Positions 39,009 to 41,562 of a DNA stretch of 41,562 nt are shown here, in pieces (within the stretch, counting starts at the first letter, position 1; each line of letters begins with the position of its first letter). The stretch is from a virus. Its lineage: Duplodnaviria; Caudoviricetes. The stretch is from positions 1 through 41,562 of the IMG/VR virus record IMGVR_UViG_3300027772_000058. One strand, given 5' to 3'. The notes beneath the pieces are model-generated. The model made no database searches, was not told the DNA's origin, and saw only the letters and a list, made by a program, of their open reading frames with translations. The position numbers and the translations under genes were made by a program.

Positions 39009-39575
39009 TTAGAATGACCTTGTGTAAGAAAATACTGTTTGTTTATTAGCACCATTACCAGTTAAAACATCATAACCTATAGAGATCTTGTCAACCTTAC
39101 TTAGATCGTAGTTAACAGCATATCTCATAGTATCAGATCTATCAAGATCAGAAACATCATATGAATTACGATAACGATAAGCAACTCTAGCACTAAAACC
39201 ATCAATTGGAAGTTTAACATTAATTCCAGGTTCGATAGAGTAAAATTCTACACCCGCTTTACCAGAAACACTTTTAATGCCAGTAGCGCCACGAATAGTT
39301 GCTTTAGCAAAAGATGTTATTTCATACCCAGTTGATAATCCAATTTCTTTCCTAGAAGTTACTGAATTGGTTACACTATTAATTGCTTGATTGATACCAA
39401 TATCACCATCTATATTAGAAAATAATTTAGTTTTTGCAGATAAGCGAGTTACCCCGACATTTTGTCCATTGCTATCTACAGTTCTATCTGCATAACTAAC
39501 AGTCACGGATGATTGCGCTAGAGCAACTGAAGAACAAGCAAGTAAGGTTGATGCTACTAAAAGTTTTAATTTCAT
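39009..39575 (-). CDS. Small outer-membrane beta-barrel / porin-like protein (188 aa)
   Basis: Signal peptide ending VALA, alternating amphipathic strands (ARVAYRYRN, RYAVNYDL, ISIGYD), C-terminal YTRSF. Confidence 0.8.
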   Translation of the reverse strand: MKLKLLVASTLLACSSVALAQSSVTVSYADRTVDSNGQNVGVTRLSAKTKLFSNIDGDIGINQAINSVTNSVTSRKEIGLSTGYEITSFAKATIRGATGIKSVSGKAGVEFYSIEPGINVKLPIDGFSARVAYRYRNSYDVSDLDRSDTMRYAVNYDLSKVDKISIGYDVLTGNGANKQTVFSYTRSF

Positions 39576-39584
39576 TTTGTTTTT

Positions 39585-39673
39585 CCTTTAAAAATTAATT
39601 TAAAGGTAATTGGCACTTATTGTCCGACATACCTCATAATATAGTATTTGGCACTTATTGTCCGACATACTAA
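39585..39673 (-). promoter_or_regulatory. Tandem 23-nt motif with closing stems plus SD-sequestering hairpin (candidate cis-regulatory RNA)
   Basis: GTATGTCGGACAATAAGTGCCAA at 39670-39648 and 39632-39610; CCTTTAAA/TTTAAAGG hairpin at 39606-39585. Confidence 0.6.
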
Positions 39674-39678
39674 AACGT

Positions 39679-40003
39679 GGTAGGTTATTCTGTTACGAGG
39701 AAACCTACCGAAACCCTAAGCAGTGTTTAGGCTGCTAATGCGAACTGTGCGTCGTTTGCGTTTACGTTGTTTTAGTTTTAACATCTTCTCTGATGGGTTG
39801 TCCACTTCTATACTTGTTACCCTGTCGAAACCTAGTCACCCCCAACGAAACATACTGGAATACAGTTTATAAGCGAATCTTTGAAGTTATCTCTTGACCT
39901 TTCAGCTACATCGCTATCCAATATGCTTCGGTGGAGGTGGGGAGAATCGAACTCCCGTCCAGAATACTTTTCTAGTTGCTTCAAACAACCATTCACCTAT
40001 TAT
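39679..40003 (-). ncRNA. ssrA: Two-piece (circularly permuted) tmRNA; tag ANDAQFALAA
   Basis: The acceptor piece comes first: T-arm GGGAG-TTCGATT-CTCCC, then CACCTCC-A-CC ending at 39930. After an intervening segment, GGGGGTGACTAGGTTTCGAC starts at 39843 (G3-U70 pair). Tag ORF at 39759-39727. Outer ends approximate. Confidence 0.93.
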
Positions 40004-40033: not shown

Positions 40034-41092
40034 TTAATTACCTGCATCATTAAAGGAAAGATCTCCTTTAAATACACTCTTTGTTCCGTAGGCTCCATTA
40101 TACCAAACTACTAAGTTCTTAAGTTTTTTATTGGTAATCTCATTGTATAGTGTTTTTCTAACATCATCAGCCTTTTGACCAACAACCCAATCATACTTAC
40201 CAGTGTCTTCTACGATAGCTGCAATTGCTTCTGGATCTTTCAACATCTTATTCAAAGCATCACGAAGTTTCTGTGTATTGGGATTTCCTTTATTTACCCA
40301 GATAACTTTTTGCAATACATTATTGAATGTACGAGCCATATGATAAGACTCATATAATTCACCAGAAGGTGCTACACCCCAAGTTGCTTTATAAACATCT
40401 TCAAATAACTTACCTTTAAAGTTTGGATTTTCAATTTGTTTACCTGTCTTTAAATCACGAAGTCCATGAGTAAACCAAACAACAGTATTAGCATCATTCT
40501 CGTAGAAACGAACCCATGATGTTGGAGGATCTCTAGTAATGTTTAACTCACCACGTAGATACATTGGACGAATTTGGTTACCAGCAACGCCATTAACCCA
40601 AATCATCTTTTCTTTCCAACAAGCAAGATATGCATTGGTATCTGATTTTGGACCACATAGCATCAAACCAACTGCCAACGCATCAGTCATAGCGTTACCA
40701 CCACCAAACTTTGCTTTATCAATCTTTGGATTAAAGTTCTTATTGTGACCAACAACCAAATCAAGATTCATCAAACCAATAGCATCGTATTGACTAAACT
40801 CATAGTCAACTTCTTCTAACAAATAGTTTACTGCGTGACTACCAAGACTAACTACCATTGTCTTATCATCTTTACGAAACTCTTTGTGCCACTGATTCAT
40901 TCCTGGAATATTTCTTGCGCCTGGAACGTGTTGTAACACAATTGGTTCATCAGTATACTTACTCAAATGTTTTGCCATAACAGAAGCCCAAACTGCTCCA
41001 CCAGATCCTGGAGCGTCTGGAACAATCATTCTATAATCTGCTAAAGCGAACGTACTGCTTAGTAGAAATAGAAAACCAATCAAATACTTCAT
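40034..41092 (-). CDS. tctC: Tripartite tricarboxylate transporter substrate-binding protein (TctC/Bug-like)
   Basis: Signal peptide; MIVPDAPGSGG..WASVMAKHL...PIVLQHVPGA; C-terminal KGNP..QKLRDALNKMLKDPE; coupled to tctA. Confidence 0.8.
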   Translation of the reverse strand: MKYLIGFLFLLSSTFALADYRMIVPDAPGSGGAVWASVMAKHLSKYTDEPIVLQHVPGARNIPGMNQWHKEFRKDDKTMVVSLGSHAVNYLLEEVDYEFSQYDAIGLMNLDLVVGHNKNFNPKIDKAKFGGGNAMTDALAVGLMLCGPKSDTNAYLACWKEKMIWVNGVAGNQIRPMYLRGELNITRDPPTSWVRFYENDANTVVWFTHGLRDLKTGKQIENPNFKGKLFEDVYKATWGVAPSGELYESYHMARTFNNVLQKVIWVNKGNPNTQKLRDALNKMLKDPEAIAAIVEDTGKYDWVVGQKADDVRKTLYNEITNKKLKNLVVWYNGAYGTKSVFKGDLSFNDAGN

Positions 41093-41562
41093 TTATTTCT
41101 CCTTAATATTGTCCAATATAAAATAAAACCTGAAAAGAAAACCAACGCAACAGTAATAGGTCTCTGTATAATTTCAGTAAACGAATACAGAGTATATGCT
41201 TGTTGAGTGAAGTTTTCAAATTTCTCTGCGACTATAAAAGATAATAGTAACGCAGGTCTACTCAAATCAAAGTATTTGGCACCTAGTCCGACAATACTAC
41301 AGATAACGAGGATATACAAGTCATTCATTGTACCAGTATACTGGAAACAACTCCAAATGACTATTGCTAGAATACCACTTGCATAAATCCAATATGGTAT
41401 TTCTAGAATCTTTACTACATACTTTGTTATGAAAATACAAAGTATAAATGTTAGGATAGTTGATGCTACGAAACTTGCTCCAACTGACCAGATAAACTTA
41501 GTGTCAGAAACAAGTTCAGCACTGCCCATGTACATACCAAAATAAACACAAATTGCCATCAT
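41089..41562 (-). CDS. tctA: Tripartite tricarboxylate transporter permease TctA, C-terminal part
   Basis: Polytopic; LSRPALLLSFIVAEKFENFTQQA...QRPI matches the TctA C-terminal pattern. The 5' part probably lies outside the window. Confidence 0.78.
   Translation of the reverse strand: MMAICVYFGMYMGSAELVSDTKFIWSVGASFVASTILTFILCIFITKYVVKILEIPYWIYASGILAIVIWSCFQYTGTMNDLYILVICSIVGLGAKYFDLSRPALLLSFIVAEKFENFTQQAYTLYSFTEIIQRPITVALVFFSGFILYWTILRRNK

Follow-up and report, generated by a model that had tools for sequence, protein, structure and literature searches.

A phage-restricted, apparently uncharacterised and probable cis-regulatory RNA with a predicted translational ON layout at tctA, tctC and porin genes

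Gene neighbourhood and motif copies in the window

The window (the whole stretch of 41,562 nucleotides analysed here) belongs to a freshwater T4-like phage, with T4-like genes that include what we take to be gp32 and gp59. Its minus strand carries, in this order, tctA, a TctC/Bug-like exported protein, a two-piece tmRNA, the motif element described here and a 188-aa beta-barrel. The features are as follows:

41089..41562 (-): tctA permease, 3' part (PF01970)
41271..41298 (-): motif copy 3, loop UAG, within the tctA coding sequence, about 180 nt before the tctC-like start
40034..41092 (-): TctC/Bug-like exported solute-binding protein, 352 aa, following tctA (weak match to PDB 2dvz, E 0.013)
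39679..39990 (-): two-piece (permuted) tmRNA (Rfam RF01850, 140.9 bits; RF04321, 122.9 bits)
39679-39709 (-): tmRNA 3' hairpin, whose end lies 6 nt before motif copy 1
39642..39672 (-): motif copy 1, hairpin UAGUAU-GUC-GGAC-AAUAA-GUGCC-AA-AUACUA (covariance model R1, 53.3 bits, training member)
39603..39635 (-): motif copy 2, hairpin GAGGUA-UGUC-GGAC-AAUAA-GUGCC-AAU-UACCUU, whose 3' strand doubles as anti-SD
39585..39606 (-): anti-SD/SD hairpin CCUUUAAA-UUAAUU-UUUAAAGG, predicted OFF state (folding)
39584..39588 (-): Shine-Dalgarno (SD) AAGGA of the porin gene (sequence)
39575 (-): AUG of the porin gene
39009..39575 (-): outer-membrane beta-barrel (porin-like), 188 aa, with an N-terminal signal-like helix (structure model, look-alike clusters)

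The 352-aa TctC/Bug-like protein had no match in a Pfam search. The model of the 188-aa barrel (pLDDT 88.5, 11 strands called) has small monomeric channels such as KdgM and NanC as its nearest natural folds, its look-alike clusters are mostly viral, and its Pfam match to Porin_4 (E 0.028) falls under the cut-off. Full tctA, together with a fourth motif copy ahead of its start, is present in loci L085 and L210. The window tmRNA is closest (74-75%) to two-piece tmRNAs of Burkholderiaceae genomes of 6.5-7.6 Mb.

The intervening segment of the tmRNA (39844-39928 in the window, plus 24 other versions) is hypervariable, 32-138 nt long, and follows a conserved closing stem. In L213/L214 and L012/L098/L125 the segment contains an SD-like run and an ATG, with a small ORF that ends at the segment end in L213/L214; in L205, the arms of the segment resemble those of the motif. 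In some relatives, an unannotated ORF family of 220-236 aa is inserted between tctC and the tmRNA (L211:4995-5657, L212:2668-3330, L205:3966-4676). Upstream of tctA/tctC runs a phage gene cluster (L202:459-2941, L210:1-2509, L211:508-2511, and about 131-135 kb in genome G002) encoding two ferritin-like proteins (PaaA/AurF-like, weak matches), a C26 glutamine amidotransferase, a PP-loop protein and 2OG-Fe oxygenases, a set suggestive of a small-molecule pathway that brings its own uptake system.

An earlier note on this DNA had described two identical 23-nt cores with a 38-nt period, and these are indeed found at 39648-39670 and 39610-39632 on the minus strand, between the two-piece tmRNA and the small beta-barrel porin gene; none of 100 shuffles contained two matches, even at three mismatches. 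The closing stems it had claimed, UAGUAU/AUACUA (39642-39672) and GAGGUA/UACCUU (39603-39635), are likewise present, as is the alternative helix CCUUUAAA (39599-39606)/UUUAAAGG (39585-39592) covering the SD AAGGA. Taken singly, the hairpins of copies 1 and 2 are weak (-6.0 and -7.3 kcal/mol, z -1.5 and -0.9, respectively). Copy 3 in tctA (pattern match at 41272-41297), for which 100 shuffles gave 0 matches, and the tmRNA directly upstream of the element were absent from the earlier note.

Hairpin structure and distribution among phages

Altogether, 21 distinct copies define a 27-base consensus, GUA-N4-5-GGAC-N3-5-GUGCC-N3-5-UAC, with 15 invariant columns. Judged from the sequence, the outer part of the hairpin is a GUA/UAC stem with one to five flanking pairs, and the inner part consists of an asymmetric internal loop with an invariant G, followed by GG/CC, a bulged G, AC/GU and the terminal loop. 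The internal loop often opposes U-U and G-A. Invariant residues gather at the internal loop and the bulge; the terminal loop is variable in sequence and length (3-5 nt), and the motif spans 26-29 nt. The pair outside GUA/UAC is kept in 20 of the 21 copies through four pair types (A-U 13, G-C 3, G-U 3, U-A 1, unpaired 1), and its covariation score exceeded those of 500/500 shuffles and of all slid registers, although kinship among these related phages inflates the score. The covariation check suggested in the earlier note thus came out positive for the outer pair, but the signal comes from one or two outer pairs; of nine pairs, six are constant throughout, and the inner helix is invariant.

Porin relatives contributed 160 loci to the comparison, namely the 80 best viral candidates of 225 and the 80 best metagenome candidates of 185, and TctC relatives a further 20. 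In these loci, porin leaders that follow the tmRNA hold one or two copies, another motif (motif B) or none of these. The motif also lies about 30 nt before tctC in L202-L207 (in tandem in L089) and before the tctA start in L085, L090 and L210-L212. It therefore marks not the porin gene alone, as the earlier note had supposed, but also tctA and tctC of the tripartite tricarboxylate transporter, so that all genes on the list of downstream genes are uptake genes. All accepted copies are sense to their gene. Most leaders carry a single copy, with tandems in two different leaders; the tandem arrangement is thus optional, and the need for two tandem aptamers was not borne out. Two porin clades, with about 43-47% identity to the window porin, bear the motif, and motif B occurs in a sister clade. 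A late-promoter box, TATAAATA, stands just upstream of the motif in 7/10 tctA/tctC leaders, which would place the motif at the transcript 5' end; the box is absent from the window porin leader.

In IMG/VR, a stem-to-stem pattern scan returned 14 stretches, 14/14 in the same phage group. A covariance model run against 591 kb from 100 sources, training members included, recovered known sites only (weakest true match 36.8 bits, next 17.3), and among complete genomes it found one site in G007, one in G008 and none in G002. Chance matches of the viral pattern scans were dropped on context (2/11, 19/22 and 13/27), and an isolate phage collection yielded AU-rich SD-region noise only. The core search proposed in the earlier note was thus successful in related phages, but bacteria yielded no convincing copy in searches for the stem sequences of the phage motif: a GTDB pattern scan gave 13 matches, all inside long ORFs; 10 matched among 401 genomes of one bacterial order, fewer than in the backwards control (about 40); and neither eight genomes of one genus, searched by pattern and covariance model with 150 of about 1000 candidates per genome scored, nor 13 loci of bacterial tctA relatives contained a convincing copy.

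Rfam 15 reported the tmRNA only, at gathering and E-value thresholds, and no family for the motif, in agreement with the earlier impression that the class is not a known one. Rfam matches to freshwater-2, DUF2815 and K10_TLS were far under threshold and were rejected. Readings as a kink-turn, a CsrA site (ANGGA) or a sigma54/sigma28 element were dropped, since positions that are key to the respective consensus are not invariant. A literature search found no paper on the motif.

Motif B (UAUGCCAGCCAC-N5-GUGCCAGCCAUA) lies 58-61 nt before the porin start, in the same place behind the tmRNA, in L010-L018, L032, L094 and L097. It has AC-N5-GUGCC and a similar bulged-hairpin fold in common with the main motif, and it may be a specificity variant. 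Between tctC and a ferritin-like gene, a TATAAATA box is closely followed by a perfect GGGCAC-N5-GUGCCC hairpin (G002:C1:132520-132534, L280). Ahead of distant porins (L042, L043, L045, L052, L075, L077), a hairpin UAUGUUGGAC-N4-GUCCACAU follows a TAAATA box about 40 nt before the gene and is like the main motif but without the bulged G.

Shine-Dalgarno sequestration and the copy inside tctA

Folding predicts that the SD is sequestered in 18/22 leaders, which are not independent of each other: its unpaired fraction does not exceed 0.23 when the ensemble is free and rises to 0.34-0.87 once the hairpin is enforced. These 18 leaders (7 porin, 6 tctC and 5 tctA, several of them near-identical) pay 2.1-5.1 kcal/mol for enforcing the hairpin. 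Little or no sequestration was predicted in four porin leaders (L022, L023, L030, L121). Among the controls, the SD was sequestered in 2/16 motif-less porin leaders behind the tmRNA, in 2/56 other porin leaders and in 2/15 genes of the window, one of which is the porin itself. The anti-SD helix comprises 7-11 contiguous pairs in 13/17 leaders, G-U wobbles included, and it is kept in leaders that differ in their SD (AAGGA, AAGGU, AAGAGU). In the tandem leader of the window, at 37 C, enforcing copy 2 raised the unpaired fraction of the SD from 0.18 to 0.85, and enforcing copy 1 alone left the SD closed (0.25). An expression platform mutually exclusive with the conserved hairpin is accordingly predicted in 18/22 leaders and not in the remaining four. 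As in riboswitches generally, a conserved structured element stands in the mRNA leaders of genes that are related in function. In 5/8 lake RNA libraries, contigs identical to the window extend without a gap from the tmRNA 3' hairpin across both motif copies and into the porin gene, although contigs are silent on strand and start and DNA may be present; in runs X2, X7 and X8, the contigs do not reach across both copies.

With a covarying outer pair and SD sequestration predicted to be conserved in three gene types, the earlier proposal of an undescribed cis-regulatory RNA with an ON-switch layout appears sound. We conclude that the motif is real and that it is probably a cis-regulatory RNA, apparently uncharacterised and confined to phages, whose translational ON layout is conserved.

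Among seven close tctA genes, some of them near-identical, 26 of the 27 bases of the tctA copy are invariant, and it is the most conserved of 467 windows scored along these genes (mean 17.8). The sole base change, A to G in L213/L214, retains a G-U pair. All nine third positions are fixed, in codons rare for this phage (joint 1.4e-6), and three distant tctA genes retain a similar peptide but not the motif. For these reasons the copy is, as far as sequence comparison can tell, under nucleotide-level selection. The copy faces a hairpin that competes with it, UACUU/(G,A)AGUA, and no start codon follows the copy. At about 41225-41260 on the minus strand of the window, the 3' region of tctA contains more conserved rare-codon stretches (AGACCUGCG ... 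GUCGCAG) for which CUGCG/CGCAG pairing is possible, and this suggests that further RNA structure may lie behind copy 3.

Candidate mechanisms and comparison with known systems

That the motif acts as an RNA translational ON switch, whatever its partner, we consider probable. Our preferred version, held tentatively and with somewhat less than even confidence, is a small RNA hairpin that serves as translational ON switch of the uptake genes tctA, tctC and porin and whose partner is most likely a protein. In the unbound RNA, the hairpin is predicted to be 2-5 kcal/mol less stable than the helix of its 3' strand over the SD, pairing that would begin at the invariant C of UAC in this strand; with the SD-covering helix the more stable one, translation would be off. 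The partner, putatively a phage-encoded RNA-binding protein, would read the invariant internal-loop and bulge residues, stabilise the hairpin and free the SD, and a second upstream copy would add a binding site without itself opening the SD. We prefer a protein to a small molecule in view of the very small size of the motif, its restriction to phages and the conserved copy within a coding sequence. However, neither gene presence/absence with Pfam nor 109 small shared proteins of G007 revealed an RNA-binding family or candidate partner specific to motif-bearing genomes, and the translational regulator RegA binds unstructured AU-rich RNA according to sections of a T4 review (PMC3014915). The remark in the earlier note that the ligand could be a protein is thus the favoured option, but no specific partner gene emerged from the genomes compared.

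A true riboswitch strikes us as rather unlikely: in it, the internal loop and bulge of the same RNA switch would recognise an ion or small molecule, for example the solute that TctA/TctC/porin import or a compound made by neighbouring phage enzymes. Confinement to a permease, a solute-binding protein and a porin is the kind of all-uptake gene set typical of metabolite riboswitches, invariant residues sit at the internal loop and bulge with the terminal loop left free, tandem copies occur in two different leaders, and tctA/tctC adjoin 8/8 motif-bearing porin loci with more than 1.5 kb upstream vs 2/17 motif-less tmRNA-porin loci, a comparison that kinship confounds. Yet neither the GTDB scan nor the 401 genomes of one order gave a bacterial copy, no start codon follows the conserved copy within tctA, and, to our knowledge, 27 nt without a pseudoknot is smaller than any stand-alone natural aptamer. 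Riboswitches of known classes have been reported in phages, as parts of PMC9004378 describe. Given the single copies, the copy in a coding sequence and the lack of a bacterial copy, a protein-bound operator fits at least as well as a riboswitch, and we do not uphold the riboswitch status proposed earlier. A phage-only riboswitch class, whose 27-nt aptamer senses a solute imported by phage TctA/TctC/porin, possibly the product of the adjacent diiron-oxidase/amidotransferase cluster, is unlikely; if true, it would amount to a phage-encoded make-import-sense circuit with an aptamer below the size of known stand-alone natural ones.

The element might instead act in DNA, as a sigma70-type promoter, or an operator, in which TTG[A/T]CG ... 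TACnnT enclose the loose palindrome SSSAC-N5-GTGCC; transcripts would then start inside the anti-SD hairpin, as in T4 genes e, soc, 49 and I-TevI, so that read-through RNA alone would be silenced. SD hairpins of T4 are relieved by promoter position in this manner, as passages of PMC3014915 state. We give this DNA-level reading a low probability. Copies of the tctC type do read TTGACG-17-TACTTT, TACnnT occurs in 18/21 rows, an internal promoter would explain the tctA copy ahead of tctC, and motif B and the perfect GGGCAC-N5-GTGCCC of G002 have AC-N5-GTGCC in common; but the spacer ranges over 14-17, the -35 of the window copies is ATGTCG (3 of 6), a promoter scan flags no motif-aligned site (11 sites vs 9.9 expected), the 5' and 3' flanks change jointly, something not required of a promoter, core spacing varies between 3 and 5 nt, and the asymmetric core is never inverted. 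Improbable, in our view, is a signal for the processing or stability of the RNA, be it a nuclease site, a protective hairpin or a small-RNA target, that segments the tctA-tctC-tmRNA-porin transcript and frees the SD by cleavage, not binding. It would account for copies at segment borders (where the transcript starts, some 180 nt ahead of tctC, and immediately after the 3' end of the tmRNA) and for the competing hairpin of the tctA copy, but most related tmRNA-porin junctions lack the motif, its stem is short for the preference of RNase III, and no complement of at least 12 nt to the motif was found elsewhere in G005, G007 and G008.

As a protein-bound or otherwise partnered ON switch, this phage-restricted RNA would tie three uptake genes into one regulon; transporter and porin genes carried by the phage would then be translated conditionally in the course of infection. 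Its partner would be either a novel translational activator of phages or the ligand that an orphan phage TctC binds.

In phage Mu Com/mom, in the RAT of BglG/LicT and in the dual hairpins of ANTAR systems, a protein stabilises a small irregular hairpin and so excludes an overlapping inhibitory helix. The present motif differs from all three in sequence, and no such protein was found in the phage. It resembles the RAT in its internal loops and is about the same size, but the RAT overlaps an intrinsic terminator, whereas the window minus strand has none; ANTAR target RNAs are paired hairpins with conserved hexaloops, whereas here loops are variable (3-5 nt) and single copies suffice. Guanidine-II, NAD+-II, Na+/Li+ and glutamine-I are small translational ON riboswitches with which the motif has much in common (a small hairpin, transporter genes, an SD platform, sometimes a tandem); unlike these, it has no Rfam match, a variable terminal loop and no bacterial representative found. 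Guanidine-II (mini-ykkC) has two hairpins with an invariant ACGR loop each, in contrast to the variable loops and mostly single copies seen here. Freshwater-2 RNA (RF02980) is similar in its CAAUAAG loop, AAGG SD tail and freshwater habitat, but the match reaches 18 bits against a gathering score of 49.9, and the common loop is the variable part of our motif.

Related motifs such as freshwater-2 may be described in the supplement of PMC5737381. An unnamed 70-nt candidate, DNAVirus_2108 (Fremin et al. 2023, PMC10690425), comprises 24 sequences, 23 of them freshwater; its table rows give one sequence within 25 bp of a TctC gene and no function, and by this table description it could be the same motif. 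The phage riboswitches treated in the relevant parts of PMC9004378 are glutamine-class elements known from bacteria, and passages of the 2010 review state that T4 had no functionally characterised riboswitch at that time (PMC3014915). As described there, T4 genes e, soc, 49 and I-TevI hold the SD in a helix on long transcripts, and a late promoter in the hairpin 5' strand avoids it. The leaders described here are alike in that the SD is predicted to be sequestered in a helix in a T4-like phage; they differ in the conserved second hairpin that competes for the anti-SD strand and in the position of TATAAATA, which, where present, lies upstream of the whole motif and not within the 5' strand of the helix.
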